A DNA stretch of 64,000 nt from a virus. A model generated the notes under the pieces. That model saw only the letters and a list, made by a program, of their open reading frames with translations, did not search any database and had not been told where the DNA came from. Below are positions 65-64,000 of this stretch, in pieces. The translations under genes were made by a program, and so were the position numbers. The stretch lies in IMG/VR virus record IMGVR_UViG_3300047323_000675, one strand, 5' to 3'. Positions within the stretch are counted from its first letter, which is position 1; every line of letters starts with the position of its first letter.

Positions 65-1288
65 TTAAACTTTAGGTCTTTTAGGTTTTACCTCGTTTGA
101 ATCTAATGTGTCATTAAGATTATGATACATATAATATTGATGAACAAATTTGGCATCCATATTAGTGCTTAATTCATCTTCACCATGATATGATTCTGAC
201 CAGGTTAATCTAATTTTTTCTGATACTTCTAAAACACCTTTTAAAGCTGTTAACAATATTTTTTCAGCTTTTTCTAAATTTTCATAAGTATCTGTGGAAA
301 AATATAAGATAACATTAGACTGATGTTCTTTGTTTTCAATATTAGTAATTGTTATATCCTCACCTATAAGCTGCATAAATTCAGAACTAGCAACTACTGT
401 TAAACAATGAGTAGCTATATTTGATAAATGCCTTCCATCCTTATGTGTTAAGCCATATTGTTCAATCAATAGAAATAGATTTATGTCTATACATCCTTGA
501 CATAATCGTTTAGTAGAGAAAATCTTTGATTCTAATAAATTTGGATAATACTTAAAATTTTCTTCTAGATGATTTGGAAAATTCTGTTTCATATATGAAT
601 GAATTTTTTTCTGTGAATCATAATTTAAAAATTTACAATAATTAACTAATTTACGAGTTTCTTCATCTTTGATGGTGCAAAAGAAATCTAAAGTATTTAA
701 AAACCATTCATGTGTAATTTTATCATTTGGAGTAACTTCTAATAATTTAAAAAAGTTAGCCACTTCTTCATCAACTGATTGATGGCTAAATCTTTTATAT
801 TCAGCTAATATTTCAATAAATTTGTTATTTATTTTATCTATAATTTTTTCATTTCTATTATTTAAATAATCTAAGTAAATACTAAAAAAATCTCTTATAT
901 GCCAATCGTTGTAATCTTTTGGTTCATAATTTAAATTATCTAATAAAATTTTAGTTATATCTATGTTATCTTTTTTAAGGAGGTCTAATAATTCAACTGA
1001 CAAATAAGATGACGACTGAATATTTGGAGTATCATTATATTGAAAATCACCATGCTCTGATCGATAAAAACTTGCAATATTTTTTAATAATCCACCGATT
1101 TTCTCACCATTTGAAATCATTTTCTCCCACTCTGGAAACTTGTCTTCTCTCTTAAACCATGAGTAGTACCTATGGTGCACATCAAACCTCGCTAATATTT
1201 TTTCTTTCCAGAATTTGCGAGTTTCATCAGAAAATTTTATATTTTTAAGTGGTGTATGTAATTCAATTTTCATATAGTTATTATTCAA
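65..1288 (-). CDS. Hypothetical protein with shared C-terminal tail
   Basis: 407-aa ORF; ends YHNLNDTLDSNEVKPKRPKV; upstream TTGACT-16-TATAAT. Confidence 0.85.
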   Translation of the reverse strand: MNNNYMKIELHTPLKNIKFSDETRKFWKEKILARFDVHHRYYSWFKREDKFPEWEKMISNGEKIGGLLKNIASFYRSEHGDFQYNDTPNIQSSSYLSVELLDLLKKDNIDITKILLDNLNYEPKDYNDWHIRDFFSIYLDYLNNRNEKIIDKINNKFIEILAEYKRFSHQSVDEEVANFFKLLEVTPNDKITHEWFLNTLDFFCTIKDEETRKLVNYCKFLNYDSQKKIHSYMKQNFPNHLEENFKYYPNLLESKIFSTKRLCQGCIDINLFLLIEQYGLTHKDGRHLSNIATHCLTVVASSEFMQLIGEDITITNIENKEHQSNVILYFSTDTYENLEKAEKILLTALKGVLEVSEKIRLTWSESYHGEDELSTNMDAKFVHQYYMYHNLNDTLDSNEVKPKRPKV

Positions 1289-1390
1289 TTTATTACTTAT
1301 AATTATAAAAGAGTGGAAATTTAAGTCAATTAAAACTTCACATTACAATATAATTAAGTATAATATTATTAATAAAGAAAAGGATAAATA

Positions 1391-1954
1391 ATGAAAGTTA
1401 AAGTTATCAAAGACCCTGGATATTATCGTCTTGTTTGTAATGACCAAGCTATCAACGAAAAATATAATCGTTCAGAAGGTAGTCCTATTGAATTAGCTAC
1501 AATGAGTACATGGGAAATGTCTAAGTGTTGGAAGCTAAGAGATATTCGTTTAGAAAATATGTTTTATCCTAGAGGTCATTTAGAAGGAAATAACTTACAA
1601 AAATATACTCCTGTTGATGAAGAAGATGCAAAGAATCTTAAATCACAACTTAGATATTATAAAGAAACCCCTGAAGGTGAAATTAGATGGGGAACTTTTG
1701 TTGGTATCGTAGGTATGGGAGATAGAACTGATCACCCTGATAATCCTAGTTGGATTGCACAATCAGTAGAAGGATGTTGGAGTTTTAATGCTGCAAGAGA
1801 AAAGTTTAAAGAAATCAAAGAGTTTTGGAAGAACTTCCAAGGTGATGATTTGGAAAGCGCAATGATGGAAAATCCAAATAAACAAATAAGTGAATTTGAT
1901 TATAGATTCCAAAAAGGTGAATATAGTAGCACTCCAAAAAAAAATAAAATGTAA
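1391..1954 (+). CDS. Hypothetical protein
   Basis: 187 aa, AGGA SD, ends PKKNKM. Confidence 0.85.
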   Translation: MKVKVIKDPGYYRLVCNDQAINEKYNRSEGSPIELATMSTWEMSKCWKLRDIRLENMFYPRGHLEGNNLQKYTPVDEEDAKNLKSQLRYYKETPEGEIRWGTFVGIVGMGDRTDHPDNPSWIAQSVEGCWSFNAAREKFKEIKEFWKNFQGDDLESAMMENPNKQISEFDYRFQKGEYSSTPKKNKM

Positions 1955-1968
1955 TATTAAGGATAATT

Positions 1969-2499
1969 ATGGTTCAATTTGATTTAAAAAAAACAAATAT
2001 TTTCATTCGTTTTGCTCCTAATTTACAAGAAGAATTAGAAGAGTATATGTTTGTCTATTCTGATATAAATGGTTTAGCTCATTTAGAAAAAAAACTAAAA
2101 GAAGATAATCTATTTTCTGATTTATTAAACCCGCCTGAAATTCTTGAAAAAATGGTAAATAAAATTTCTGCTAAATTTTCTTCTAATGAATTTCCAGGTA
2201 TTGATTCTGGAGCATGGATTGGAAGATTTATAGGTGCATTTCCAAAAAAAGGTCAAAATTTGGATGAGCATCTTATACCTTGGATGATTAAGCTAGAAAA
2301 TTTATTGGGGAAAGAAAATATTTTTAAAGTAGTTATTCCATTAAAAGAGTTTGATGATTATACGAAATCAATTAGAAATAAAGAAAAAGATGAACGCAAC
2401 CAATTAGTATTGCGTTATATTGAAAGCTATAGACTGAAATTAGAACTAGAAAATGATTTAAAAGATAGTAAAAATTATAAAACTAAAATTAAATTATAA
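1969..2499 (+). CDS. Hypothetical protein, paralog of 2530..3069
   Basis: Shares QFDL.K.NIF, YSD.NG, W.G.F..AF, LGKENIF.V.IP, YRL.LEL.NDL with next ORF; AAGGA SD. Confidence 0.85.
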   Translation: MVQFDLKKTNIFIRFAPNLQEELEEYMFVYSDINGLAHLEKKLKEDNLFSDLLNPPEILEKMVNKISAKFSSNEFPGIDSGAWIGRFIGAFPKKGQNLDEHLIPWMIKLENLLGKENIFKVVIPLKEFDDYTKSIRNKEKDERNQLVLRYIESYRLKLELENDLKDSKNYKTKIKL

Positions 2500-2520
2500 A
2501 ACTAAAATTAAATTATAAAA
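2472..2520 (+). repeat. 19-bp tandem repeat, about 2.6 copies
   Basis: AAATTATAAAACTAAAATT at 2472-2490 and 2491-2509, partial copy 2510-2520. Confidence 0.85.
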
Positions 2521-2529
2521 GAAGAATAT

Positions 2530-3069
2530 ATGAAACAATTTGACTTAGATAAACCGAATATTTTCATGAAATTAATGTTTGTTGATGAAGAAACTAATAA
2601 TAAAGAATTAACATTCCTTTATTCCGATTCCAATGGAATGAAACATTTAGAGACAGTATTAGAACAAAATCCTTTATTCTCAAATTTATTGTCTCCAACA
2701 GAAGTGCTAACGAAAATGTCTTATGAAATAGCAGGATTATTTGCTTCTAATCAATTTACAGGAGTTGAATCCTGTGGTTGGATAGGTAAATTTGTAAAAG
2801 CATTTTCTAATGAAGAGCCGTATTTTAATACAGAATTTAATAAATGGAAGAACCAATTAGAGGCATTTCTTGGTAAAGAAAATATTTTTGAGGTTAAAAT
2901 TCCGGCTAATGAATTTGATACATACTACGAATCAATAATTAATTCAGGTATTCATAGACATGAACAAAGTATTCATATTTTTAAATTTGTTGAAACTTAT
3001 AGATTAAATTTAGAATTAAGAAATGATTTGAATATAAACGACAATCCTAATCGTAAGCATAAATTATGA
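2530..3069 (+). CDS. Hypothetical protein, paralog of 1969..2499
   Basis: 179 aa; ends LELRNDLNINDNPNRKHKL. Confidence 0.85.
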   Translation: MKQFDLDKPNIFMKLMFVDEETNNKELTFLYSDSNGMKHLETVLEQNPLFSNLLSPTEVLTKMSYEIAGLFASNQFTGVESCGWIGKFVKAFSNEEPYFNTEFNKWKNQLEAFLGKENIFEVKIPANEFDTYYESIINSGIHRHEQSIHIFKFVETYRLNLELRNDLNINDNPNRKHKL

Positions 3070-3674
3070 AAAAAAATAAATTCTTAAAAATATCTGAATC
3101 CATAAAAATTTACTTTTATGGTATTAAGAATAAATTTAAAGATGATACTCAAAAAGGTAGAGACTTTTATGAATTATCGGTTTGTTTACAAGTAGGTAAT
3201 ATAAAAAAATTTGACGAATTTTTTCTTAAAAGATATAATCCGATTTCATTTATCTCATTAATTGCTCCAGCAATTGGGAATGGTAAATTAGAAACTTTTT
3301 TAGCACTCGAAGAAAAAGCTATTAAAACGAATAAAATTGAACAATTTTATGAAACTGCTCTTGATTTAGTAACGAGTTTAAATAACTTAGATGTATTAAA
3401 ATATTTGATTAACAATAAACTTATTGATAAAGAAAAAATTGATTATGCATATATAATTAATGCTTATGAATCGGATTCAAAAGATGTATTGAACTATCTA
3501 TTATATGAGTTTAGAGTTCCTACAAATAATGATTTAAATATTAGTTTAAAATCAAATCCGATTGGAAAGTCATATCCTGAAATAATTGAATTAATAGAAA
3601 AACGAGATTTAATGTTTCAGTTAAAAAAAGATTTAAATCAAGAAGAAAAGAAACCAAAACCGAAAAAAATTTAA
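3066..3674 (+). CDS. Degenerate ankyrin-like protein, paralog of 7596..8252
   Basis: GNIKKF, NNLDVLKYLI, LIEKRDLMFQL motifs; ATGA overlap; K-rich tail. Confidence 0.7.
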   Translation: MKKNKFLKISESIKIYFYGIKNKFKDDTQKGRDFYELSVCLQVGNIKKFDEFFLKRYNPISFISLIAPAIGNGKLETFLALEEKAIKTNKIEQFYETALDLVTSLNNLDVLKYLINNKLIDKEKIDYAYIINAYESDSKDVLNYLLYEFRVPTNNDLNISLKSNPIGKSYPEIIELIEKRDLMFQLKKDLNQEEKKPKPKKI

Positions 3675-6730: not shown

Positions 6731-7243
6731 TTATTTACCGACTTCATTTAATTTACCTTTTGAATATAAAACTTTGACAATAACTTTTTTATTTGGAAAG
6801 TTTGGTGCATCATTTTCGCCCACTTCTAAAGCATCAAAAGAAATATTCATATCACCATTTTTATTTTCAATAGCTTTAGCTTTAAGTCCCTGCACACCTC
6901 GCCAACCTTTTCCACCAATAGGGATATTATCTACATAGGTATAATAAGGCACATTATTTTCATTAAAGTTTTCTTCAAATATTGCTAAGAATTGAGTATG
7001 ATTATTTCCACCACCAAATCCTTCCATTGTAAACACAGTAAGAACCAGTTTAGATGAACCTTTTCTATTTATGAAATCCACATAAGTAGCAGGAGTATAA
7101 GAGACAGCATAACCATCACTTAATAATTCACCTAATTTTTGCACTTGAATTGTAAGTTCTTTAGGGATTTGTTTTTCTTTAGTTGCTGCATGAGAAAGTA
7201 AACAAATTGAAGATAATAATAGTGATATTACGATTTTTTTCAT
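6731..7243 (-). CDS. Secreted/periplasmic protein
   Basis: Sec signal MKKIVISLLLSSICLLSHA. Confidence 0.8.
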   Translation of the reverse strand: MKKIVISLLLSSICLLSHAATKEKQIPKELTIQVQKLGELLSDGYAVSYTPATYVDFINRKGSSKLVLTVFTMEGFGGGNNHTQFLAIFEENFNENNVPYYTYVDNIPIGGKGWRGVQGLKAKAIENKNGDMNISFDALEVGENDAPNFPNKKVIVKVLYSKGKLNEVGK

Positions 7244-7245
7244 AA

Positions 7246-7530
7246 TTATTCTTGCTCCTTTATTAAATTTTTAGTTGTTTGATATTTTTTAATTCTAATA
7301 ATTACTACTTTTAAAAATAATAAAGGACCTAGTATATATGACATCCATAAGATAATCTCTGTTATTGCTTTAGTATGTGGAGGCCCAAAACAATGACCAT
7401 TAACAACATCTCCAATACCTGCTGCTTTTGCAGAAAAAGATATGAGCAAAAACATGAATATAAATATTTTTTTCATTATAAATCCATAATAATTAATAAT
7501 GGTTATATAGAATAAATTCATTATTATCAA
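7246..7530 (-). CDS. Small membrane protein (true start probably MKKIFIF)
   Basis: Signal-like N-terminus plus one TM helix. Confidence 0.65.
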   Translation of the reverse strand: MIIMNLFYITIINYYGFIMKKIFIFMFLLISFSAKAAGIGDVVNGHCFGPPHTKAITEIILWMSYILGPLLFLKVVIIRIKKYQTTKNLIKEQE

Positions 7531-7595: not shown

Positions 7596-8252
7596 ATGAA
7601 AAATAATATTTTTTTAAATATTTCCAATTCAATCAGTTGGATAAAAGATTTGTTCAGAAATAACGATTTTTGGTATAATCAAGATTTTTATACTGAAAAA
7701 GCTGTTAAAGAAGGTAATATAAAAAAATTTGAGCAAATATGTAATGGTAGAAATCCACATACTGATTTTAGTTATTTATCAAGTTATGCAATTTTACAAG
7801 ATAACTTAGAATTATTTTTTAAAATAGAGCAAAAAGCTATTCAAGCTAGAAAAAATAGAGCTAGTAGTAGAAATTTTGAAAAAAAATATAAAACTAAGCA
7901 TTTAAAATATTTATTTTATAACGAAGTTATAGATGCTGCTATTACAAGAGATAACATTGAATTAGTAAAATATTTAATTGAAAATAAAAAAATAGACAAA
8001 AAAGAAGCATTTGATGGACATTCAGTATTGCAAATGGCTAGATATGATGCATATAAAGTTTTGAAATATGTCTTATTTGAGTTAAATATACCGCTTAGTG
8101 ATATATTAATGCAAAAGTTAGAGTATGATGACAATGGAAATAAACATACTAAAACATTAGATTTAATTGAAAAAAGAAATATGTATTTCCAATTAAATAG
8201 TAGTTTAGAAAAGTCTAACCAAATTAATAAAAATAAGTCATTAAAAATATAA
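7596..8252 (+). CDS. Degenerate ankyrin-like protein, paralog of 3066..3674
   Basis: EGNIKKF, DNIELVKYLI, LIEKRNMYFQL; ends KNKSLKI. Confidence 0.7.
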   Translation: MKNNIFLNISNSISWIKDLFRNNDFWYNQDFYTEKAVKEGNIKKFEQICNGRNPHTDFSYLSSYAILQDNLELFFKIEQKAIQARKNRASSRNFEKKYKTKHLKYLFYNEVIDAAITRDNIELVKYLIENKKIDKKEAFDGHSVLQMARYDAYKVLKYVLFELNIPLSDILMQKLEYDDNGNKHTKTLDLIEKRNMYFQLNSSLEKSNQINKNKSLKI

Positions 8253-15125: not shown

Positions 15126-15145
15126 ATTTTTAATTTATATTTTCT

Positions 15146-51747: not shown

Positions 51748-52224
51748 TTAAATCTTAGGACTTTTAGTTTTATTAGTGCCAATACTTAGATTATTTTCCA
51801 AATCTTTGATCAATGCTTGTTTTTCAAATAATTCATTTACAAAAGGATGGTGGTATCTATTTAAATAATCTGTAATATCTTGATTTTTTTCCATCCTATA
51901 ATCCAATATGAGATATTCTAAAATATCATTGTTTGAATACATGCATGCTGCTTTAAATGGTGTTGACTGATTCTGGTAAATATTAGAATGTTCATTTAAT
52001 TCAGGTGAAGTTAATAGATATTTAACTATATTTAAATGATTTTTCTTCAGCGCTAAAGTTAATCCATTATCACTTTCAGTATGAATGTTAGCATGCATAC
52101 TTAAGTCAGGTGAAATTAATAAATATTTTATTTTTTGAAATTCACCATGTAAGCATGCCCATACAAAGAAATCATCTAATGTATCTTGAGGCTCATCCTT
52201 AAATTCATCATAAAAATTATTCAT
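51748..52224 (-). CDS. 35-aa ankyrin-repeat family protein
   Basis: NHLNIVKYLLTSPELNEH; tail TKSPKI. Confidence 0.85.
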   Translation of the reverse strand: MNNFYDEFKDEPQDTLDDFFVWACLHGEFQKIKYLLISPDLSMHANIHTESDNGLTLALKKNHLNIVKYLLTSPELNEHSNIYQNQSTPFKAACMYSNNDILEYLILDYRMEKNQDITDYLNRYHHPFVNELFEKQALIKDLENNLSIGTNKTKSPKI

Positions 52225-52892: not shown

Positions 52893-53677
52893 AGTTTATT
52901 CTTCTTTATTATATTTAATTTTTCAGTTTTTAATTCAGCAGTTAAATCACAATTTAACTCTCTAATTTCGAACATTTTTTGAACTTTAATTTTGTTTTCA
53001 AGACAAAGTGTGTCTTCCTCTAAATATTCCTTAATGCTTGAACTATACGGTATATTTAAATCAAATATAAAATATTGCATTACAGTTAAATCTTCTGACT
53101 CATATCCTAAGCTAGCATAACAATTTAAAAAAGCTCTATCATCAGTTATATCAATATTATTTTTAAAATTTTTTCTTAAAAAGTCTATAATATCAACATT
53201 ACAACCAAAACAAGCATCATGATATAAATCATTATCAACTTTTATCTTATCTTTCCATTTAGAATTAATTAAATAATTGAAGGTATCATAATCACCTTCA
53301 CGACAAGAAAAACCTATTAAATTTTTCAAATGTTGATTTTCATCATTAACAATGATTGGTAAAAGAAATTCTAACCATTCCCAATCTTTATTATTTTTTG
53401 CAAAATTTAAAATTCCATAAGAATAAGGCTTAACATCTATATGTTCTTTGAGATCTGGAGAACAAGAGAGATATTTAATAATATCAACATGTCCGTTATG
53501 GAAGGCTAATTTAAAGCAAGCAGTATCATCATAATATATATTCGCATTGTATGGCAGTGATGATGAATTTAAAAGATACTGAACTTTAGCAAAATCACCA
53601 TCAGCACATGCAGAAACAAAAGTTTCATTTATATCATGCTCAGAATATGAATTGAATTCTTCATAGGAAATATTCAT
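52889..53677 (-). CDS. 35-aa ankyrin-repeat family protein
   Basis: ACADGDFAKVQYLL; tail IKKNKL. Confidence 0.85.
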   Translation of the reverse strand: MNISYEEFNSYSEHDINETFVSACADGDFAKVQYLLNSSSLPYNANIYYDDTACFKLAFHNGHVDIIKYLSCSPDLKEHIDVKPYSYGILNFAKNNKDWEWLEFLLPIIVNDENQHLKNLIGFSCREGDYDTFNYLINSKWKDKIKVDNDLYHDACFGCNVDIIDFLRKNFKNNIDITDDRAFLNCYASLGYESEDLTVMQYFIFDLNIPYSSSIKEYLEEDTLCLENKIKVQKMFEIRELNCDLTAELKTEKLNIIKKNKL

Positions 53678-54168
53678 AATTTATTTTTTCTTTCTTTGCA
53701 TGTATTAACAGATGATAAATCATGAGTAAGTTCCTCATTTAAATCTCTTATTGAAAACATTTTTGAAATTTCTTTATAGAAAGGATTGTAATAGTTTTGA
53801 TGAAGATATAAATCCATTGAATTATTTTTGGGTATTTTCACTTCATAAATTAAAAAATTAATTATACTATTATCTCTATAAAAATATGCTTTGTTAATAG
53901 CTATTTCAGCAGTAATATTTTCTTTAATATCTTCTGATGATAATAAATAATTAACCAACTCTTTATCTTTTATTTTACATGCAAAATAAATACCTAAATC
54001 ATTGCTAGTATGGATATTGGCATGATTTTTAAGTTCAGGAGAAGCCAAAAGAAACTTAACAACATTCAAATCTCCTCTTGAACAAGCCTCAGTGAAATAA
54101 TGATCTAGAGCATTCTGATCTGCTTGAATAAGTTTTTCATAAAGATAATCATCAATACCATGTTTCAT
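53674..54168 (-). CDS. 35-aa ankyrin-repeat family protein
   Basis: ACSRGDLNVVKFLLASPELKNHANI; tail ERKNKL. Confidence 0.85.
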   Translation of the reverse strand: MKHGIDDYLYEKLIQADQNALDHYFTEACSRGDLNVVKFLLASPELKNHANIHTSNDLGIYFACKIKDKELVNYLLSSEDIKENITAEIAINKAYFYRDNSIINFLIYEVKIPKNNSMDLYLHQNYYNPFYKEISKMFSIRDLNEELTHDLSSVNTCKERKNKL

Positions 54169-54863
54169 ATTTTATTTTTTTTAGTAATGTTTTTATTAAT
54201 TTTTAATTTTTTATTTAAATCCTTATTTAATTTTTGAATTTTAAATAGTTGATTAACTTCTTTAATTATAGGATTATTTTTTCTTTGTTTCAATTCTTCT
54301 TTTATATAAGAGCTTTTTTCAACATTTAAATCAAAAATCAAGTATTTAATCATATCTAAATGTTCATGTTGAAATGCTAGTCTAAAAGCAAAATCCTCTT
54401 GAGCATGAATATTAGGATGCTCTTTTAATTCAGGTGAATGCATTAGATATTGAACTACATCAATATGTCCATGACAACATGCAAGAATAAAACCATAATC
54501 ATTTTGTGCATGAATGTTAGCATGTTTTTTTAATTTTTTAGATGTTAAAAAATATTCAACTAAATTTAAACGACCACTATTGCATACATCAACAAATGCT
54601 TGATCATCTTTTGCATGTATATCTATATGCTCTTTTAATTCAGGTGAAGTTGATAGGTATTCTATAATAGTTAAGTTTCCATTATGGCATGCTGCACGAA
54701 GAGCATATCCTTCTCTAGTATTAATATTTGCATGTATGTTTAGCTCAGAAGAAGTTAATAAATATCTTATTTCATCTAAATTACTACATTGGCAAGCTTC
54801 AATAAAGCTAGTATTAATTTCTTTTTGTGATAAATCTTTAAATTTTTCGTATAAGGAATGCAT
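54165..54863 (-). CDS. 35-aa ankyrin-repeat family protein
   Basis: ACHNGNLTIIEYLSTSPELKEH; tail TKKNKI. Confidence 0.85.
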   Translation of the reverse strand: MHSLYEKFKDLSQKEINTSFIEACQCSNLDEIRYLLTSSELNIHANINTREGYALRAACHNGNLTIIEYLSTSPELKEHIDIHAKDDQAFVDVCNSGRLNLVEYFLTSKKLKKHANIHAQNDYGFILACCHGHIDVVQYLMHSPELKEHPNIHAQEDFAFRLAFQHEHLDMIKYLIFDLNVEKSSYIKEELKQRKNNPIIKEVNQLFKIQKLNKDLNKKLKINKNITKKNKI

Positions 54864-54869
54864 TACGGT

Positions 54870-55589
54870 TTATAGTTTACATTGTTTTTTATTAGAAGGT
54901 GTTAAGATTAACTCCTTGTTTAACTCTCTATTTAAATCTCTCATATCGAAGAATTTATTTATTTGAATTGCCAAATCATCTTTTACATCTAAGTATTGAG
55001 TGATCAATTTAGTTTTTTCTAAATTTAATTCAAATATTAGATAATTTAAAATTTCCATACTTCCAGGCTCATTAGTATATGCATTTTGTAGAGCTAATCT
55101 AAAACCTAAATCATGCTTTGAATGAGGATTAATATGTTTATTCAACTCTGGTGAAGCTGTTAAATATTTAACTAATTCTAAATTTCCCTTATTGCAAGCA
55201 ATAATAAAACCTTGCCCATCATCAACATTAATATCAGCATGCCTTGTTAACTCTTTTGAAGTTAATAAATATTTTACTAATTCTAATCCTTTTTTACCTG
55301 GTATCATACAAGCACCAAGAAATCCTTCATCAATATTGTTATTGATTACTATATGTTCTTTTAATTCAGGTGAGTTAATTAAATACTTAACTATATTTAA
55401 ATCCCCACCTTCACAAGCAAGTTGTAATGCATGGCCATTTTCAGTGTTTATTTCTGCATTAGTTTTTAGTTCTTTGGAAGTTAATAAATAACGAACAACT
55501 TCCATATGTCTATATTGGCAAGCATTAAGAAATTTTTGATTTAACCCTGAGAGCCATAAATCCTTAAAGTCATTGTAAAAAGGGTGCAT
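54870..55589 (-). CDS. 35-aa ankyrin-repeat family protein
   Basis: ACNKGNLELVKYLTASPELNKH; tail KKQCKL. Confidence 0.85.
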   Translation of the reverse strand: MHPFYNDFKDLWLSGLNQKFLNACQYRHMEVVRYLLTSKELKTNAEINTENGHALQLACEGGDLNIVKYLINSPELKEHIVINNNIDEGFLGACMIPGKKGLELVKYLLTSKELTRHADINVDDGQGFIIACNKGNLELVKYLTASPELNKHINPHSKHDLGFRLALQNAYTNEPGSMEILNYLIFELNLEKTKLITQYLDVKDDLAIQINKFFDMRDLNRELNKELILTPSNKKQCKL

Positions 55590-55603: not shown

Positions 55604-56167
55604 TTATATTTTATTTTTTGGTTTATCTATAGAATTAATAGGTAATTCTTTTTTAAGAGAATTATTTAATAGGTAACTTTGAAGTTTTTTATAATATTGC
55701 TGATAATCTTCCAATAAATAAACTGCGTTTCCATTATTACTCATATTTATTTCATTTATGACTTCTTTTATATTATCTTGTAATTGATAATCTCTGAATT
55801 CAAAAATCTTTTTATTTTTATAAAGAATATCAAGCCCAATATTCATTAAATCATTAAATACCTTTTCTTTTTCTTGAATAATACTAAGATTATAAACATG
55901 ATATATTGTGTTTTGAAAGAAGCGTTCGCTAAATCCATTAGCAATGTTAAAAAACTTAAGATATCCTTCTCCATTGTTTTCAATAGTTTGATCTATCAAA
56001 GATGCTGCAACTAAATAACTAAGATAATCTTTACTATTACTACCTAATGATGTATTAAATTCTGTAAATTTTTTATTAATACATTGATATATAAATATAC
56101 TTTCAACTTTTTTAAAATCATCTTTGGTAAGATAATCTTGAAATTCAAATAGTTCAAATGCTTTCAT
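55604..56167 (-). CDS. Hypothetical protein with shared tail
   Basis: No ankyrin motif; ends LNNSLKKELPINSIDKPKNKI. Confidence 0.8.
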   Translation of the reverse strand: MKAFELFEFQDYLTKDDFKKVESIFIYQCINKKFTEFNTSLGSNSKDYLSYLVAASLIDQTIENNGEGYLKFFNIANGFSERFFQNTIYHVYNLSIIQEKEKVFNDLMNIGLDILYKNKKIFEFRDYQLQDNIKEVINEINMSNNGNAVYLLEDYQQYYKKLQSYLLNNSLKKELPINSIDKPKNKI

Positions 56168-57651
56168 ATTTTTAACCTTTTTGTATTGTTAGATGTATTA
56201 TGTCCTAAATCATTATTTAATTCGGCATATTCTAATGCTTTCTCCATTTTTAAAACACTTTGTTGTTGCTCTGGACTTAAGTAATTATTATATATAGAAT
56301 CAGTTTTTATTAATTTAATAAGTATTTCACCTGGCATAATTTTTTTATTATTTGGACTAATTAGCACTTCAATATCATTATTAACTAAGAATTGAGCAAT
56401 ATTAAACATTGCCTTACCATTACTACTATTATTTTGTGTTTTAATAATTTTTTCAAAGAAATTTGCTAAATAATGTGCGAAATTATTTCCTTCTTCGTCT
56501 TTAATTTGCCAATCAATATATTTTTTTTCTGACAGCTTTATTATTGTACTTTCTATTTCAGTTGTTTTACCTAAGCAAAATAAAGAGCAAACTGAAGAAT
56601 ATATTTTCAGATTATTTAACTCCTTATTTGTTTGATACCATTGATTAAGTATTGATGTATTATAATGAAATTTTTTTATAGCATTATTTTCTAAAAAAAC
56701 TTCAGAATTAGTTGAGTTTTTCATATCTCTATATACTTCATCTTTAATCTCTGAAACACTCCAAGAGTCACGAGCAGTCATAACAATATTCTGTTCTGTG
56801 ATTGGTTTAGCATTATAGTAAAGCTCAAAATCCTTCCAATTATTATTATGAAGGCAATAAGCCATCATTAATTCTTGAAAATTTTTGGAAATGGAATCAT
56901 TTTGAATATTTCTAACTAAAAAATCATTTAAAGTGCTATGTAATAAAGTGTCTGTTCCAAGTTCTTTACTAAATCTATCAAAAAAATTTAAATTTTTATT
57001 ATCATTAATTTTTAGATTAACTCTAGAAAAAAATGATAATAAGAAATTTTTAACTAATTTTTTTTCTTCTATTTTTTCTAGATATATTTTAGCAAACTCG
57101 TTAGATTTATTTGAATATATGGAATCAAAAATTGGCATATTATTTACCATATATAACGGATTATCTAATTTATCTAACAGTTTTTTTGCCAAATTTACTC
57201 TGCCTTTAATTCCAAAACGAGCAGCACAATGTTCTATTTGTTCTTTATCATTCAATAAATCCGTAGTTGTTTTTCCTGGGAAAAATTTTGCACATATCTC
57301 ATTCATTGTATTCAATATTTGATTATTTTTTATGTAATAAAACGCACACTGTACACCCATAGATGGTATTTCTGGTTTTATAAATAACCTTTCAAAATAA
57401 TAACTTGCTGAACGAGTGTTATCAAAAAATTCCTTAAAGCAAGCGGAAGCACCATATTCTATACAAGCTTTTAATGTGCAATCTAATTGAATATGAGGAT
57501 ATCTATCTAAATAAGCTTTAAAGGCATCTGGTTTATCATAAAAGAAAATTAAATCTAATGACTTAGGTATATAGGATAAATATTTATGTTCAGATGGAAC
57601 TGTTAATCCCAATTTTTGAGTGAATTGTTTTTCTTCAAAAGACATGTACAT
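56164..57651 (-). CDS. Helical hypothetical protein with shared tail
   Basis: 495 aa; one ankyrin-like WQIKDEEGNNFAHYLA; ends TKRLKI. Confidence 0.8.
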   Translation of the reverse strand: MYMSFEEKQFTQKLGLTVPSEHKYLSYIPKSLDLIFFYDKPDAFKAYLDRYPHIQLDCTLKACIEYGASACFKEFFDNTRSASYYFERLFIKPEIPSMGVQCAFYYIKNNQILNTMNEICAKFFPGKTTTDLLNDKEQIEHCAARFGIKGRVNLAKKLLDKLDNPLYMVNNMPIFDSIYSNKSNEFAKIYLEKIEEKKLVKNFLLSFFSRVNLKINDNKNLNFFDRFSKELGTDTLLHSTLNDFLVRNIQNDSISKNFQELMMAYCLHNNNWKDFELYYNAKPITEQNIVMTARDSWSVSEIKDEVYRDMKNSTNSEVFLENNAIKKFHYNTSILNQWYQTNKELNNLKIYSSVCSLFCLGKTTEIESTIIKLSEKKYIDWQIKDEEGNNFAHYLANFFEKIIKTQNNSSNGKAMFNIAQFLVNNDIEVLISPNNKKIMPGEILIKLIKTDSIYNNYLSPEQQQSVLKMEKALEYAELNNDLGHNTSNNTKRLKI

Positions 57652-57718: not shown

Positions 57719-58384
57719 TTAAATTTTAAGTTTATTATTTTTATTTATAGAATGATTTTTTATTAGTTCGTTATTAAGATCACGAGTAATAAATATATTT
57801 GATATTGATGATAATCCATTTTCATCAAGAAAGTTAGTTATTTTCTTGTTCTTTTTAATACTTAATTCAAAAATCATATATTCTACTATATCAAAATTTT
57901 TGTATTTGCAGGCATCCATAAATGCTTGTGTTAGTTTATTTTGTTTTTTGATATCATCAGATGAAAGGAAAAACATTATAATCTCTTTATGATTATATTC
58001 ACAAGCAGCTTCAAAACACGAATTTAATCCAACACTAATAAAAGCATGTTCTTTTAAATCAGGAGAAGTTAATAAGTACTTCACAACATCAACATATCCC
58101 ATTTTAGAAGCCCAATATAACCCACAATCCATTCTTGCATGAATATCCGCATGCTCTTTTAAATCAGGAGAAGTTAATAAATAACTAATAATTTTTAGGT
58201 TCCCATTTCCGCATGCATTGATAAATCCAGCATAATCATTATATGAAATATTAGCATGTTCTGTTAATTCAGGAGAAGTTAATAGATATTTAATTTTTTC
58301 AAAGTCATCTACACGAGTTGCGTTTACAAACGCATGGTTTACATCTATTTTTAATATTTCTAAATTAGGCCAATATGATGTCAT
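57719..58384 (-). CDS. 35-aa ankyrin-repeat family protein
   Basis: ACGNGNLKIISYLLTSPDLKEHADI; tail NNKLKI. Confidence 0.85.
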   Translation of the reverse strand: MTSYWPNLEILKIDVNHAFVNATRVDDFEKIKYLLTSPELTEHANISYNDYAGFINACGNGNLKIISYLLTSPDLKEHADIHARMDCGLYWASKMGYVDVVKYLLTSPDLKEHAFISVGLNSCFEAACEYNHKEIIMFFLSSDDIKKQNKLTQAFMDACKYKNFDIVEYMIFELSIKKNKKITNFLDENGLSSISNIFITRDLNNELIKNHSINKNNKLKI

Positions 58385-58387: not shown

Positions 58388-59938
58388 TTAAATCTTTATT
58401 TTTGCTTTTTTATTAAATTCATTATCGGTAGAAAAACTATATTCTACTAAATTATGTAATGTTTGCTTATATAAAATTTTCTGACTACGAGTTAACTTAG
58501 GGAAAAATATTCCATATGTTTTATTTTTTAATGTAGTTGCTCTATTAATACTTTGGACATGTCTAGCAAGTATTTCAGGAGTTTCAGTCCAATATCCCAG
58601 ATTAATATTTTTTTCATTAGCATGTTTAATTATTGTTTTCATATAAGGCGAAGTTCCAAAAAAGCCTCTACTTCCTTTAAATGGATTATTTAAATTACAG
58701 AAATTATTTTCTTCCAACCATTCTTTTAAAATTTTGCTAATTTTTTCTTTTGCTAAATTTTTATTATTTTGTATAGACTGAAGTTGTTCCTCATTTAACT
58801 TTAATGAAGAAATAAGACTCTTGAGTATATTGCTTGTTGGGGAAAAAAATGATTCCATATTAGCATTGATCATAGTAATGCCAGTTAACGCATAATATTT
58901 AAAATGATCTTTGATACTAGATACTAATTTTTCTTTTTTTTCAGAATCAAGATTATCTAGTTTAGATTTCAAATCACCTAATAATGAGGATAAAATTATC
59001 TCAGTAGAAGAATCAAAAAATAAAGATGATTTAGCTTCATAATTTTGAGAGATTTCTATTATTGACTCATCACTAACCATTTTAACTATAGTTTCTTGAA
59101 AATTATTTAAAAATTTATTGTTAAGTTTATTAATGTTAATATTATCTTTAAATAAATCCATTAATACAAAGCTAGATAAATAACCGTTTTCAAATGCTAA
59201 ATTTCTTTCTTTTGATGGCACAGAATACAATTTATTAAATGCAAGATGATCAAAAATATGTGTATATTCATGAATGAGTGACTCTAAAAACCAATATGGC
59301 TTATTAGGCTTTACTGTAAGAGTAAAATAACCATCATCATTATCTAGGCATGCTCCTTGTGACTCATTTGGAGTAAGCAAAGATGTACAATGTAGAGTCA
59401 ACTTACCATTTAAATTAATTTTTTCTTTTGATAGATTGAAATCTTTCATAAATTTAGTTAAAGATTTTCTTGTAAGTTTCGCCCAATAACTTACCTTATC
59501 CCAATTATCTGTTTTATGGATAATTATTGTTTGAAGATTAAAATCGTTTTTTAATTTATCAACTAAATTTATTGCGATATTTTTATCGCCTTTTAAAGAA
59601 ATAGGCTCATAATTTTTTATAGGGTTTTTCAATATTTTTTCTATTTCTATTTTAAGTACATTCATAATATTATTGTTTATAATATCCAATGTTCTTAAGT
59701 TATCAGAGACTTTCTGATTTTCTTCCTGAATATATATTTTTACATTTTTTCTAGTTTTTGATATACTCTTTTTAATTATCTTTAGATCCTCAATATTTTC
59801 TAAATTATCTAAGTTTGATTTCCATAAAGAAATTATTTCTTTGAAAAATAAATTGCAATTTGGAGAGCCAGAAATATAAATATCAAAAAAATCATCAATG
59901 AATGATTTTAAATAATTAATTTTTTCTTGAGTTATCAT
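58388..59938 (-). CDS. Zincin-like HExxH protein, LPD1-like
   Basis: LIHEYTHIFDH plus distal YWTETPEILAR; ends KKAKIKI. Confidence 0.6.
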   Translation of the reverse strand: MITQEKINYLKSFIDDFFDIYISGSPNCNLFFKEIISLWKSNLDNLENIEDLKIIKKSISKTRKNVKIYIQEENQKVSDNLRTLDIINNNIMNVLKIEIEKILKNPIKNYEPISLKGDKNIAINLVDKLKNDFNLQTIIIHKTDNWDKVSYWAKLTRKSLTKFMKDFNLSKEKINLNGKLTLHCTSLLTPNESQGACLDNDDGYFTLTVKPNKPYWFLESLIHEYTHIFDHLAFNKLYSVPSKERNLAFENGYLSSFVLMDLFKDNININKLNNKFLNNFQETIVKMVSDESIIEISQNYEAKSSLFFDSSTEIILSSLLGDLKSKLDNLDSEKKEKLVSSIKDHFKYYALTGITMINANMESFFSPTSNILKSLISSLKLNEEQLQSIQNNKNLAKEKISKILKEWLEENNFCNLNNPFKGSRGFFGTSPYMKTIIKHANEKNINLGYWTETPEILARHVQSINRATTLKNKTYGIFFPKLTRSQKILYKQTLHNLVEYSFSTDNEFNKKAKIKI

Positions 59939-60534
59939 AATTTAATTTTAGAAGGCTTATTAATTATCTTATCACAAATTAATTCTTTTTCTAGAGATTT
60001 TTTTATTTCTCTCTTATCAAACAATCCTTCAATATAATTTTTAAAATCATTATTAGAATACTGCTTTAAATATTCTGTAATATATCCGCTTCTTTCAATA
60101 TTCAATTCAAAAATTAGATATTCTAGAACAGAATTTTGTTTATTAGCTAAAGCATTACTAAATCCATACTCTATGGCTTCATTTAAACTAACATTATTTC
60201 TATATTTTTGATTAGATAATAAATATTTTGCAATTTGTAATTGTCCTTGATGGCAAGCATAACAAAATGCAGCCCCATTATTAGTTTTTATATCAATATC
60301 AGGATCTTCTAGTAAATATTTAACAACATCCAAATGCCCTTCTTTAGCAGCAAATATTAACGGATATGAATAGGTATTCATGTATTTAACATTGATATCT
60401 GCATGAAGAAATATTTCAGGTGATGTAAGTAAATATTTTACTTTATCTAAATGACCATATTTACAAGCAAGTAAAAAACTTTTATCTATTTCTTCTTGTT
60501 CTAATTCTTTATATTCTTCGTATAATGCATTCAT
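59935..60534 (-). CDS. 35-aa ankyrin-repeat family protein
   Basis: ACKYGHLDKVKYLLTSPEI; tail PSKIKL. Confidence 0.85.
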   Translation of the reverse strand: MNALYEEYKELEQEEIDKSFLLACKYGHLDKVKYLLTSPEIFLHADINVKYMNTYSYPLIFAAKEGHLDVVKYLLEDPDIDIKTNNGAAFCYACHQGQLQIAKYLLSNQKYRNNVSLNEAIEYGFSNALANKQNSVLEYLIFELNIERSGYITEYLKQYSNNDFKNYIEGLFDKREIKKSLEKELICDKIINKPSKIKL

Positions 60535-60536
60535 AA

Positions 60537-60959
60537 TTACAATTTATGCTTTTTTCCTATATTTAAATTTTCTTTAAGTTCCAAACTTATTTCTTTTTTT
60601 AATTCTCGTTGTTGGAAAAAATATTCAGCTTTTTCAATAAACTCAACACAATCGAAACTTTTAGCCTCTTTATATGCCTTTTTATACCATGATAAATGTT
60701 CAGTAATTTTTTCTGTTTGTTGAATATTTAAATCAAAAATTAAATAAGTTAAAACTGATATATCTCGCCAAATACATAATATTCTAAAGGCTTCATCTTT
60801 ATGACTATGAATATCTGCATGATCTTTTAAATCTGAAGAGGATAAAATAAATTTAATTTTGTCAAAATCATTCTCATTCATTGCATCTATAAATGCTTCA
60901 TTTAACTCATCTTTAGTTAAATATTGACAGTGCTCACAATAATTATCAAATTCACTCAT
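60537..60959 (-). CDS. Short ankyrin-family protein (start MSEFDNY at 60959)
   Basis: Paralog of 60961; tail IGKKHKL; the track extends 21 codons into the upstream gene. Confidence 0.8.
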   Translation of the reverse strand: MSEFDNYCEHCQYLTKDELNEAFIDAMNENDFDKIKFILSSSDLKDHADIHSHKDEAFRILCIWRDISVLTYLIFDLNIQQTEKITEHLSWYKKAYKEAKSFDCVEFIEKAEYFFQQRELKKEISLELKENLNIGKKHKL

Positions 60960-60960
60960 T

Positions 60961-61392
60961 TTATAGTTTTGCTTTCTTAATTTTACTTTTATCTTCCGTA
61001 GAAAGAGTGATTCCAAGTTCATCTTTTAATAATCTTTTTTCTAATGCTTGATTAACTTGATCAATAAAGAAGACCTTTTTTTCTTCGCCATAATGTTTGT
61101 ACCAACCTCTAGCAGTTTCTAGATGCTCAACAATAAATTCAGTTCTTTCTATATTCATATCAAATATAAAGAAATTTAAAATCTCCATATTTCTTTTCCT
61201 GCATAAGATTCTAAAAGCTTCATCTTCATCATAATGAATATCAACATAATCCTGTAAGTATGGCGAAGTTAAAAGTAATTTTACATCCTCAATTCTTTCT
61301 TCTTCTACAGCTTTAAGAAATTCTCTATTTAATTGCTCAGGAGTTAATCCCTTACAATAACTTTTGAATAATTTCGGCATTTGTTTAACCAT
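60961..61392 (-). CDS. Short ankyrin-family protein
   Basis: VKLLLTSPYL..DIH..DEAFRILC; tail IKKAKL. Confidence 0.8.
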   Translation of the reverse strand: MVKQMPKLFKSYCKGLTPEQLNREFLKAVEEERIEDVKLLLTSPYLQDYVDIHYDEDEAFRILCRKRNMEILNFFIFDMNIERTEFIVEHLETARGWYKHYGEEKKVFFIDQVNQALEKRLLKDELGITLSTEDKSKIKKAKL

Positions 61393-62294
61393 TATAATTT
61401 CACCTTAACTTTATCTAATCTGTTATCATGTAATTCAGTTTCTAATTCTTTATTTAAATCTCTCATTTGAAAAATTGAGTTCACTTTTGCACAAAAACTA
61501 GCTGTTTCATGAATAAAATAATCGCTAGAAAGATATTCTTCTATGTGTTTACTTTTTTCTATATTTAATTCACAAATCATATACTCTACTATGTTAAGTT
61601 TATGATATCCACAAGCTTGAATAAAAGCTCTATCTCCCATTGAGTGTAGATTTGCATGTTTTCTTAGTTCTTTAGAGTGTAATAAATACTTTACTATATC
61701 TAAATGACCATTTTGGCATGCAGATATAAACCCCCTATCATTTTGCATATTAACATCTAAATTCTCTTTTAGTTCAGAAGATGTTAACAAATACTTTACT
61801 ATATCTAAATGACCATTTTGGCATGCATAAATAAATATATTATCATCCGCTTTTGCATGTTCTTTTAATTTAGGAGATGTTAAAAGAAATCTTATAATAT
61901 TTAAATGCCCATATTCACAAGCTTTAGTTACTAATTTATCAGTTAAAATAGCATGGTTAGTTAATTCTGAAGATGTTAATAAATATTCAAGAATATCTAA
62001 ATGACCAAGTTTACAGCACTGAATTAAAGGTATGTCAGAACAACTATTTATAGCTATATGGGTTTTTAATTTCGGTGAAGTAAGCAAATATTTTACTAAT
62101 TCAAGATTACCACTAATACAAGCTTTAACAAGAATCCAACCTTTATCAGTTTCAATATGAGGATTAAATTTTAAATCAGGGGATGTTAACAAATAATGCA
62201 CTTTCTCAATATCACCTTGCTCAGCAAAAGATAAAAGAAGCATTCCTAATTCATTAAAGTTTTTATTTTTTATATCTTCTTGAAACATTTTCAT
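61392..62294 (-). CDS. 35-aa ankyrin-repeat family protein
   Basis: About 7 repeats, ACQNGHLDIVKYLL twice; tail DKVKVKL. Confidence 0.9.
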   Translation of the reverse strand: MKMFQEDIKNKNFNELGMLLLSFAEQGDIEKVHYLLTSPDLKFNPHIETDKGWILVKACISGNLELVKYLLTSPKLKTHIAINSCSDIPLIQCCKLGHLDILEYLLTSSELTNHAILTDKLVTKACEYGHLNIIRFLLTSPKLKEHAKADDNIFIYACQNGHLDIVKYLLTSSELKENLDVNMQNDRGFISACQNGHLDIVKYLLHSKELRKHANLHSMGDRAFIQACGYHKLNIVEYMICELNIEKSKHIEEYLSSDYFIHETASFCAKVNSIFQMRDLNKELETELHDNRLDKVKVKL

Positions 62295-63097
62295 ATTTTT
62301 GTTTTTTTATTATTTTTATTACTAGGATTAAGCTGTTCATTAAGTTCTTTATTTAATTCTCTTGCAGTAAACATGCCTTCTAAATTTCTAGCGAATGGCT
62401 CCTGATATTGCCACAACAAATCCATTGTATCTTTATTTCTAGGTATATTAAAATCAATAATAAGATATTGTGCTATTTCTAAACTTTCGTTCCAGCGTGA
62501 TGAAAACAAAGCTGCATTGAGATCTGCTATTTCTTTAAAATTAGTATTTGTTAAAAGAAAGCGAACAATTTCTAAATGACCGTTCTCACATGCAAGATTT
62601 AAAATATCTTTACTATTTTCATTAATATCATATTCTTTTAAATATTCTGAATTAAATAAATACTTTATAACATCAATACTTCCATTCTCACAAGCTAGAG
62701 ATATTCCCCAGTAATCATTCTCGCTAATAGAAGCATGTTCTTTCAAATCAGGTGATGTAAGTAAGTATTCTACAATATTGGCGTGTCCATATTTACAAGC
62801 AATCTGTAAACCTGTATCATCTCCTCTATTTCTAGAGTAAATACTTTGGTGGTATTTTAATTCGGGAGATGTTAATAAATACTTTACAAGATCTAGCCAA
62901 CCATACTTACATGCATATAAATAACCATTATAATCAGATTCACTATCAGTAACATCAATATTTGCATGATCTGACAACTCAGGAGAAGTTAAAAGATATC
63001 TTACTTTTTCCAAATCACCATCAATACATGCTTTTAAAAATGCATTATTTTTTTGATAATGGGTTGTATCTTTAAATTCTTCGTAAAAACTATTCAT
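62291..63097 (-). CDS. 35-aa ankyrin-repeat family protein
   Basis: ACKYGHANIVEYLLTSPDLKEH; tail NKKTKI. Confidence 0.85.
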   Translation of the reverse strand: MNSFYEEFKDTTHYQKNNAFLKACIDGDLEKVRYLLTSPELSDHANIDVTDSESDYNGYLYACKYGWLDLVKYLLTSPELKYHQSIYSRNRGDDTGLQIACKYGHANIVEYLLTSPDLKEHASISENDYWGISLACENGSIDVIKYLFNSEYLKEYDINENSKDILNLACENGHLEIVRFLLTNTNFKEIADLNAALFSSRWNESLEIAQYLIIDFNIPRNKDTMDLLWQYQEPFARNLEGMFTARELNKELNEQLNPSNKNNKKTKI

Positions 63098-63165
63098 GAG
63101 GAAATATTTTAATTATACTTAATTATATTAAATTATTATTATCTTTCCAAACTATTAGAGTATTT

Positions 63166-63783
63166 TCATAATTTTATTTTATTATTTATTTTTGTTGGGT
63201 TGTGCTTTAATTCTTTTTCAAGCTCATTTTGTATTTTTTTATTTTCAAACCAATTATTTATTTCTTCAACTGAAAAATCTAAATGATATTCTTGGAGATA
63301 TTTTTCAATCTCACTAGTTTTTTGCATATTTAATTCAAAAATAAAATATTTAATCATATCAAGATAACCTCTTTTACAACATATTTTGAATACTTCATCA
63401 TCTTGAGAATGAATATCAGCATGTTCTTTTAAATTAGGTGAAGATAATAAATATTTAACAATATCCATATGCTCATTTTCACATGCCCATCGAAAAGCAT
63501 ATCCATCACGAGCATTAGGGCTAATATGATCTTTTAAAAATGGAGATGTTAAGAGAAACTCGACTAATTTAAAATCTCCATTTGTGCAAGCCCAAACTAA
63601 TGCATAATCATTACAATGATGTATATCTGCATTAAGTTTTAATTCGGGCGAAGTTAAAAGATATATAACTTTTTCAAATCCTGTTTTGTATTGAAAAGAA
63701 GCAAAAATGAATTCATCATTAATTTCTTTTTGATTTAAATCTTTAAATCTATCGTATAAAGATATCTCTGTATTATTTTCCAT
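63166..63783 (-). CDS. 35-aa ankyrin-repeat family protein
   Basis: ACENEHMDIVKYLLSSPNLKEHADI; tail NNKIKL. Confidence 0.85.
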   Translation of the reverse strand: MENNTEISLYDRFKDLNQKEINDEFIFASFQYKTGFEKVIYLLTSPELKLNADIHHCNDYALVWACTNGDFKLVEFLLTSPFLKDHISPNARDGYAFRWACENEHMDIVKYLLSSPNLKEHADIHSQDDEVFKICCKRGYLDMIKYFIFELNMQKTSEIEKYLQEYHLDFSVEEINNWFENKKIQNELEKELKHNPTKINNKIKL

Positions 63784-63788
63784 ATTAT

Positions 63789-64000
63789 TTAGATTTTAGG
63801 TTTCTTTTCCATAGAGTTATTAATTGGTAAATCCTTATTTAACGATTTATTTAATTCCCTTTGCTCAAATAATTGTTTTACAATATTAAGCTGTTCATCA
63901 GAACAAAATGCAAAATAAGCTTCAGTAGCTTTATTATATTCGTAATTCTCTTCAAAGATCATCTTTTTAATAGTATCTAAATCATTTGCTTGACAAGCAG
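63789..64000 (-). CDS. Partial ankyrin-family gene (3' end, runs off window)
   Basis: Hand translation ...ACQANDLDTIKKMIF...LFEQRELNKSLNKDLPINNSMEKKPKI*. Confidence 0.8.
   Translation of the reverse strand, partial: ACQANDLDTIKKMIFEENYEYNKATEAYFAFCSDEQLNIVKQLFEQRELNKSLNKDLPINNSMEKKPKI

Follow-up and report, generated by a model that had tools for sequence, protein, structure and literature searches.

A conserved, strictly C-terminal tail on ankyrin, DUF285, and orphan proteins as a candidate Sec-independent export signal

Analysis of the IMG/VR stretch IMGVR_UViG_3300047323_000675 (hereafter the window, i.e., the whole 64,000 nucleotides [nt] analyzed) revealed that 65 of its proteins end in one and the same module of ~40 residues, referred to here as the tail, and the proteins bearing it are referred to as tagged. 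This module is portable among unrelated protein bodies, strictly terminal in position, held by purifying selection on the protein, never combined with a Sec signal peptide, and restricted to one clade; it may represent a type IV-like translocation signal, although both the export role and the type IV machine are what we infer. The window ranges from 24 to 33% in GC (guanine plus cytosine) content and contains 90 non-nested open reading frames (ORFs) of at least 60 amino acids, mostly on the minus strand in tight tandem arrays, with a 4-nt overlap at many gene junctions. C-terminal K-[ILVM] was found in 67 of the 90 ORFs, [KR]xK[ILVM] in 55, and [KR][KR]xK[ILVM] in 44, in good agreement with an earlier hand count of about 66 in about 90; the full module occurred in 65, and the K-[IL] ends without an upstream module in proteins 5636 and 24606 (named, like all below, by coordinate) are probably due to chance. 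Considering amino acid composition or internal dipeptide frequency, only 2.6% or 2.0% of the ORFs (∼2 ORFs) would be expected to end in K-[ILVM] (binomial P = 2.6e-86), and such ends were observed in 5/200 out-of-frame "junk" ORFs from the same DNA and in 2.5% of 1412 ORFs from an AT-rich outside control of 66 giant-virus-like contigs (24 to 38% GC), none of which matched the tail profile. The enrichment was thus ∼30-fold against every null, and neither out-of-frame ends nor those of the AT-rich control reproduced the tail, which argues against an artefact of AT-rich ORF ends.

The module consists of an F-x-x-R-[DE]-L-N-x-E-L-x-x-x-L helix, ∼12 polar residues, and a [KR][KR]-x-K-[ILV]-COOH tip, spanning the last ∼28 to 43 residues and always running up to the stop codon. 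The original prediction, which was made from the letters of the window alone, had described the tail correctly in looser terms, but its pattern [RY]xLxx[ED]Lxx[ED]L was in the wrong register and fitted only 7 proteins, the true helix core being L-x-x-E-L-x-x-x-L. The reference tail and the residue counts by position (numbered from the C-terminus) are as follows.

48054..48188, minus strand: reference tail, the last 45 residues of ankyrin protein 48051..48740 and first row of the tail alignments
Position -1 (65 tails): L in 30, I in 29, V in 4, and M in 2
Position -2: K in 65/65
Position -3: unconstrained, with I, L, N, and P commonest
Position -4: K in 45 and R in 10
Position -5: K in 49 and R in 5
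Positions about -6 to -12: a stretch rich in Asn and Ser
Upstream of the polar stretch: the helix F-x-x-R-[DE]-L-N-x-E-L-x-x-x-L

Spacing between the two elements was fixed: of the 43 proteins with the strict motif, 39 have the last Leu of the helix at a distance of 12 to 14 residues from the C-terminus. The tail was positively charged toward its end (net charge of +2.2 for the terminal 20 residues and +2.7 for the terminal 5), whereas the helix was slightly negative, and its basic residues were mostly Lys (203 K versus 17 R). Asp and Glu averaged 3.1 at positions -25 to -11 of tagged proteins versus 1.8 in untagged ones, and 36/65 tails held at least three of them within any 8-mer.

Portability of the tail became evident when the bodies were grouped by all-against-all BLAST after trimming of the last 40 residues. 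This analysis yielded 43 ankyrin-like proteins and nine DUF285 proteins (all tagged), the pairs 1969/2530 and 3066/7596, and the tagged singletons 65, 1391, 26386, 26797, 32002, 34563, 55604, 56164, and 58388, so that at least ten body groups unlinked by BLAST have the tail in common. Moreover, a profile built from ankyrin tails only matched the C-termini of DUF285 proteins (expect value [E], 7e-6 to 0.04), 2530, and 55604, and a profile built from DUF285 tails only matched ankyrin tails and the 1969/2530 pair, with protein 2530 being matched by both. No Pfam family covered the tail when the 65 isolated tails were scanned, no similar PDB chain was found, and several tagged bodies were without a Pfam or NCBIfam family. 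The families that had been named as carriers (ankyrins, DUF285, the 1969/2530 pair, the HExxH protein 58388, and the orphans 65, 55604, and 56164) were all recovered, as was the set named as lacking the tail (the Sec-signal proteins 6731 and 16709, the RlmN-like 24995, and the TnpB-like 49817), to which the Sec-signal protein 7246, an R2K ATP-grasp protein (3686), and a lipase (8897) could be added. Tagged and untagged features of the window are listed below.

65..1288, minus strand: tagged orphan of 407 amino acids, with a weak helix motif and the end KRPKV
1391..3674, plus strand: tagged orphan 1391, paralogous pair 1969/2530, and weak ankyrin 3066
6731..7530, minus strand: two untagged proteins with Sec-type N-termini (hydropathy scan)
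7596..8252, plus strand: tagged weak ankyrin, paralogue of 3066, followed by a 98-nt spacer
10691..16294, minus strand: seven tandem DUF285 genes (Pfam DUF285, E down to 1e-92), each ending in PYWA..ER.KAI..Y.L.KEL...L..N....KK.K[ILVM]
16709..17083, minus strand: untagged protein with a Sec-type N-terminus (hydropathy scan), inside the DUF285 region
17133..20705, minus strand: tagged DUF285 genes 17133 and 19330 and tagged ankyrin gene 20118
24995..25879, plus strand: untagged RlmN/Cfr-like radical S-adenosylmethionine (SAM) enzyme
26386..27021, minus strand: two small tagged proteins of 134 and 74 amino acids, with a variant helix
27177..38788, minus strand: ankyrin-like array, block 1, all genes tagged, including weak ankyrin 32002 and the 96-amino-acid fragment 34563
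38802..39707, minus strand: tagged ankyrin with an N-terminal membrane anchor (hydropathy scan: anchor, ankyrin repeats, tag)
40543..49462, minus strand: ankyrin-like array, block 2, all genes tagged
49817..51601, plus strand: untagged TnpB-like protein interrupting the ankyrin array
51748..55589, minus strand: ankyrin-like array, block 3, in which gene 51748, an operon end facing a convergent gene, is still tagged
55604..57651, minus strand: two tagged orphans of 187 and 495 amino acids, without a Pfam or NCBIfam family
57719..58384, minus strand: tagged ankyrin gene between orphans
58388..59938, minus strand: tagged HExxH orphan of 516 amino acids, with zero homologues among 5.8 billion proteins
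59935..63783, minus strand: six tagged ankyrin-like genes

Tag and Sec signal peptide never occurred together: a hydropathy scan found no hydrophobic N-terminus in 64 of the 65 tagged proteins, the exception being 38802 with its membrane anchor, and the three Sec-type proteins were untagged. The AlphaFold2 model of protein 48051, built with 17 paralogues (mean predicted local distance difference test [pLDDT] score, 93), predicted an ankyrin stack followed by one long motif-bearing helix at residues 198 to 221, with a pLDDT of >90 until residue ∼210 and lower values thereafter, and a disordered end of seven residues (pLDDT <50). The helix has a Leu stripe on one face and an adjacent acidic stripe of Asp and Glu at i, i+4, and i+8.

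To what extent the tail reflects constraint on protein rather than on DNA was judged from codon usage and divergence. In an array with such dense gene packing, the tail could in principle be a by-product of DNA constraint, with its A-rich codons serving to initiate translation of the next, overlapping gene where Shine-Dalgarno sites are scarce in the genome: of the 65 tagged genes, 28 share an ATGA overlap with the following start and another 18 end no more than 25 nt away from it, a Shine-Dalgarno-like site precedes only 15 of 86 window genes, and the last codon is skewed toward ATA/TTA. This last skew was the sole synonymous shift observed, and it is explained by the ATGA overlap, which requires such codons. 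Elsewhere in the helix, spacer, and tip, synonymous codon usage equaled the background, and Lys was encoded by AAG in 20% of cases in the tip versus 13% in the bodies, indicating no pull toward A-runs; moreover, Arg substitutes for Lys at positions -4 and -5. The tail is also kept by 19 tagged genes that have no nearby downstream start, being followed by a spacer of >25 nt, a convergent neighbor, or the window edge (for instance, DUF285 gene 19330 faces a convergent neighbor, yet retains the tip KKIKI). In nine orthologue pairs from two related bacteria, represented by L083 (a locus of the 180-kb record described below) and L090, the last five residues had the lowest ratio of nonsynonymous to synonymous divergence (dN/dS), 0.12, compared with 0.21 in the body, 0.23 in the helix, and 0.55 in the spacer. 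Divergence at synonymous sites was high throughout, tip included, while dN was lowest in the tip, and smaller comparisons between the window and metagenome sequences agreed with this pattern; the helix, likewise, was conserved as amino acids. Thus, the constraint acts on the protein and not on the DNA, no DNA-level constraint was seen at synonymous sites, and an explanation by DNA constraint, largely refuted, is the least credible of those considered here, though the A-rich tip may also aid the start of the next gene as, at most, a secondary benefit. The genes of the arrays are probably translated by coupling and with the help of A-rich leaders supplied by the Lys-rich tip of the upstream gene.

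For the distribution of the tail, its profile (65 tails) was searched against 1.84 billion representative proteins, giving 119 matches at E ≤1e-3, all of which reached the last or second-last residue of a protein ending in K-[ILV]. Relatives in metagenomes and IMG/VR were found with full-length protein alignments. These included a metagenome contig (L002) syntenic with window positions 35028-37092 at 79% DNA identity, two contigs on which K-[ILVM] ended 22/22 ORFs (L004) and 11/11 ORFs (L005), and the 180,807-bp record IMGVR_UViG_3300047323_000673 (G001, comprising loci L083-L087 and L092-L095), which contained 101 tail matches, also on DUF4116 proteins and further families. This 180-kb record is listed as a provirus with 28% completeness, and the window itself has a tRNA array and no core genes; moreover, DUF285 and ankyrin bodies have giant-virus homologues. 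Such features would fit a virion-packaging signal of a giant phage or virus. However, the 180-kb record carries bacterial pncB, argS, nadE, a GGDEF cyclase, a photolyase, an SrmL ligase, and a transfer-messenger RNA (tmRNA), its exact PncB is also found on a 2.23-Mb contig, and a relative with a 76% identical PncB, on 2.0- to 2.2-Mb JGI contigs, has pncB followed by a tagged ankyrin array. Considering these genes and megabase-scale contigs, the 180-kb record is bacterial chromosomal DNA and not a virus, and the repeat-gene arrays probably misled the viral classification behind its provirus label. Among the ORFs scanned, none belonged to a capsid, terminase, or portal family, and the viral homologues have no tail. 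Packaging into virions is therefore largely refuted and has only a very slight chance of being right. The original prediction of a shared sorting signal on an effector-like set thus fits in that the tail is portable, Sec-exclusive, terminal, and conserved in relatives, and was not supported where it allowed for virion packaging.

The tmRNA of the 180-kb record (L086 15952-16380) encodes the tag peptide ANDTNYSLAA and matches the beta-proteobacterial model; it scored above threshold for both the beta-proteobacterial and the permuted-tmRNA models. The nearest named PncB, at 62% identity, belongs to a metagenome-assembled genome labeled "Gammaproteobacteria bacterium," and ESM Atlas places PncB in Pseudomonadota. 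A more distant relative (67% PncB identity, 35% GC) had no clear helix, and ∼40% of the ORFs around its pncB ended in basic-x-K-[ILV] (e.g., SKFKI, AFKV, and TNKI), so that the tip looks like the older, core element of the module. Among 185,579 GTDB species genomes, a scan with the tail alignment gave no confirmed relative among the best 600 candidates, which is weak evidence given the degenerate pattern, and a scan with the ankyrin alignment likewise gave none; plasmid and phage collections returned zero matches. The lineage is an uncultured, low-GC, probably protist-associated member of the Pseudomonadota, and none of the GTDB species genomes searched represents it. Two candidate sources were dropped, namely Chromulinavorax (Dependentiae), whose ankyrins mostly have Sec signal peptides, and Comchoanobacter, whose genomes are 39 to 42% GC.

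The same kinds of bodies occur elsewhere without the tail. The 233 DUF285 homologues on giant-virus-like IMG/VR records were 52 to 60% identical to those of the window, yet none matched the tail profile, their ends lying inside or just past the repeats; similarly, the tail was absent from ankyrin homologues on 72 other metagenome loci. Ankyrin homologues of three loci with 28 to 33% GC (L006, L008, and L011; 42 to 43% identity) ended in a different constant module, ...EQYC.EH..(D/N)F..W..EM(V/I)KED...INS(H/Q)TTELF(V/L/I)-COOH, which is acidic, then polar, then hydrophobic and looks, from its sequence, like the C-terminal label of another lineage. A further constant ankyrin module ended in ...GPGFFQAIEQI, and giant-virus-like ankyrins ended in ...YYRPSGPGFFQAIEQI. 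Bodies of diverse origin thus lack the tail elsewhere, and the tail is therefore a label added in one clade. The likeness of the DUF285 proteins at window positions 10691-20121 to those of L098-L169 suggests a recent exchange between giant virus and bacterium, presumably in a shared protist host. Since DUF285 and ankyrin bodies are common to giant viruses and the tail is not, gene exchange followed by re-addressing would be the order of events, with the bacterium adding its own label to acquired eukaryote-targeting domains.

Taken together, the free C-terminus, the constrained K-hydrophobic end, the spaced helix, the absence from Sec-dependent and housekeeping proteins, and the presence on hundreds of repeat proteins are best accommodated by a Sec-independent export signal for a receptor that would recognize the carboxyl end. 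According to the mechanism we propose, the tail would be a bipartite, uncleaved C-terminal signal by which an uncultured low-GC bacterium of the Pseudomonadota directs cytoplasmic proteins, independently of Sec, into a dedicated translocation machine. This machine would most likely be a type IV secretion system, in which a coupling protein or adaptor may read the tail. The K-[ILV]-COOH tip with the two preceding basic residues would be the primary determinant, requiring a free carboxyl end, and the amphipathic helix ∼12 residues upstream, with its Leu stripe beside the acidic stripe, would provide a second contact for docking. The cargo would consist of the variable bodies (ankyrin, DUF285, DUF4116, and orphans), acting as host-directed effectors. 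Retention of the basic-K-[ILV]-COOH tip in the distant relative is as expected if the machine reads the tip. We give a type IV-like translocation signal about an even chance of being correct.

Among known systems, the type IV family, with the Dot/Icm (type IVB) signal of Legionella and Coxiella and the VirB/D4 (type IVA) signals, offers the nearest precedent. BID of Bartonella and XVIPCD of Xanthomonas are conserved, alignable C-terminal type IV signal domains of >100 amino acids shared by unrelated effectors; compared with these, the tail is far shorter and is not known to share sequence similarity with either, and neither domain turned up in the Pfam scans. The coupling protein of VirB/D4 systems recognizes a net positive extreme C-terminus. 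Vergunst et al. 2005 is reported to have described VirB/D4 signals as positively charged C-termini, and the extreme C-terminus of the tail is net positive, with Lys instead of the typical spaced Arg. Dot/Icm signals of Legionella lie in the last ∼30 residues, with acidic residues starting 11 to 18 residues from the end and an E block of 3 to 6 acidic residues within 6 to 10 residues, and those of SidM form a patch on a helix (PMC3096851). The tail resembles them in being C-terminal and uncleaved and in having helix-face acidic residues, which start 11 to 25 residues from the end, followed by a polar stretch rich in Ser and Asn. A computed Dot/Icm consensus signal, FSSDDVLLEEEEEEEESSLLSSLKL, ends in ...SSLKL, and transport was abolished when its last Leu was changed to Glu (PMC5802825); the tail similarly ends in K-hydrophobic-COOH, with L, I, V, or M last in 65/65. 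Unlike the Legionella signal, which is a non-alignable compositional bias, the tail can be aligned among hundreds of proteins, keeps its spacing fixed, and has a tip rich in Lys; its acidic block is less dense, with Leu, Asn, and Lys residues in between, and no Dot/Icm genes were found in the DNA examined.

Several observations weigh against a type IV-like signal. Neither the window, nor the greater part of the 180-kb record, nor six further loci of ∼21 kb from four relatives showed a secretion gene of any type, and a search of the 180-kb record for the TrwB/VirD4 coupling-protein family gave zero matches; since the DNA examined amounts to less than one-tenth of a ∼2.2-Mb genome, this absence is weak evidence either way. 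The type IV signals described so far are degenerate, and a 40-residue module of such conservation is not known among them. The acidic block is thin, reaching three or more Asp/Glu per 8-mer in little more than half of the tails (36/65), and the charge of the tip is Lys and not the Arg typical of VirB/D4 substrates. Dot/Icm is the rule in Legionellales, and the beta-type tmRNA of the relative argues against an assignment to that order. Finally, the helix could equally be a functional element on the host side.

An alternative is export through another machine, such as a type I ATP-binding cassette (ABC) exporter, an undescribed system, or loading into vesicles or contractile-injection particles. 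Type I signals are likewise C-terminal, uncleaved, and often helical, ankyrin proteins of Orientia and Ehrlichia are type I substrates, so that intracellular bacteria do use this route for such proteins, and the conservation of the tail is unlike that of known type IV signals. Moreover, adjacent ABC exporter genes encoding 580 and 584 amino acids lie inside a run of tagged genes on a related contig (L009 3493-6934). However, this pair fell below all curated cutoffs, looks like a generic heterodimer of the CydDC/MsbA type, and has no membrane-fusion or TolC gene alongside, and no operon of ABC exporter, membrane-fusion protein, and TolC was seen beside the arrays. Type I signals are reported to be Lys-poor, unlike the Lys-rich tip, and known cargo signals of contractile-injection systems are N-terminal. 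An identity as type I RTX substrates was rejected, since no RTX family, with its Gly-rich nonapeptide repeats, was found in the Pfam scan and the L009 heterodimer was the only ABC pair near tagged genes. Another export machine is unlikely, yet it is the foremost of the alternatives to a type IV-like route.

A role inside the host cell was also considered, in which the tail would be an adaptor or localization module, consisting of a hub-binding helix and a tip resembling a nuclear localization signal (NLS) or a membrane-binding patch, in the manner of PRANC/F-box proteins. The architecture is the same as in poxviruses and Orientia, where a constant helical C-terminal module of ∼40 residues sits on large, fast-evolving arrays of ankyrin paralogues, i.e., variable binders, and the ankyrin arrays of other lineages mentioned above have distinct constant C-terminal modules of their own. 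In contrast to PRANC/F-box, the tail also occurs on non-ankyrin folds and requires a free C-terminal K-[ILV]; no F-box or PRANC match was obtained at E ≤0.001 in 86 whole proteins or at E ≤0.01 in the 65 isolated tails, and no likeness was found in PDB. As noted in the original prediction, the tips resemble the monopartite NLS consensus, and 44/65 do fit [KR][KR]xK; this pattern is not specific, and it leaves the terminal position and the K-hydrophobic-COOH end unexplained. Indeed, an NLS or lipid-binding patch need not be terminal, yet more than 200 copies all end in K-[ILV]-COOH, with the tip being the most constrained part. Furthermore, proteins acting in the host would first have to be exported, and no signal for that other than the tail is visible. 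As the sole function of the tail, a host adaptor is somewhat less probable than export by another machine, but the two kinds of role are compatible, and the adaptor role could hold for the helix simultaneously.

The tip also bears a resemblance to the MuA-type ClpX motif, reported as ...RRKKAI-COOH, in which basic residues cluster just before an aliphatic residue at the free C-terminal end. The tail might accordingly be a proteostasis tag read by an AAA+ unfoldase, like "C-motif 2" of MuA, either keeping effector levels low or handing proteins over for unfolding, and stable ankyrin stacks would need to be unfolded before export. Constitutive degradation of hundreds of proteins encoded by about one-tenth of a genome would be uneconomic, however, and a conserved helix with a fixed spacer is absent from any known degron, which leaves this explanation improbable. 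Two further C-terminal signals were rejected on their counts: the peroxisomal signal PTS1, [SAC]-[KRH]-[LM]-COOH, fitted only 4/65 tails, position -3 being unconstrained, and the endoplasmic reticulum retrieval signals KKXX/KXKXX, which have Lys at -3 plus a second Lys at -4 or -5, fitted 2/65, with Lys lying at -2, -4, and -5 instead.

A type IV-like or other export role for the tail would have several consequences. The tail is a new and unusually explicit form of a feature of an already known kind, the C-terminal secretion signal; should it direct export, no known signal of a Sec-independent effector route would be as explicit, since the tail is alignable, findable with a profile, and fixed in its two-part geometry. 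The effector repertoire of an uncultured, probably protist-associated clade could then be read from sequence alone, and a short defined peptide could serve as bait for the receptor (coupling protein or adaptor), making type IV-like substrate recognition testable. No description of the module was found in Pfam, PDB, or the literature searchable for an ankyrin/DUF285 C-terminal tag. More speculatively, and doubtful in our estimation, the tag may label an undescribed delivery route or a highly derived type IV system that serves one of the largest effector sets known from any single genome, judging by the 101 tail matches of the 180-kb record, with the helix also acting as a constant connector between the diversifying ankyrin and DUF285 binders and a single host hub.

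As for the remaining content of the window, the Pfam scan assigned at least 39 proteins to ankyrin repeats and 9 to DUF285, the rest being orphans and a few enzymes (R2K ATP-grasp, class-3 lipase, RlmN-like radical SAM, and TnpB-like). The TnpB-like protein (49817-51601, plus strand; 594 amino acids) scored below the curated cutoff and splits the ankyrin array from the opposite strand. Two untagged genes, at 18616-19305 (plus strand) and 25883-26338 (minus strand), have the near-miss ends ...KKDKKIKP and ...SRPKPRK, which may be decayed or variant tips. A tRNA array at 22421-24139 (minus strand) comprises 14 genes according to ARAGORN and 13 according to Rfam, which adds one at 22610-22682; it contains only tRNA-Glu (TTC, one CTC) and tRNA-Tyr (GTA), neither of whose amino acids is among those enriched in the tail. 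On the related contig L009, an array of 13 tRNAs with mixed anticodons directly follows a run of tagged genes.

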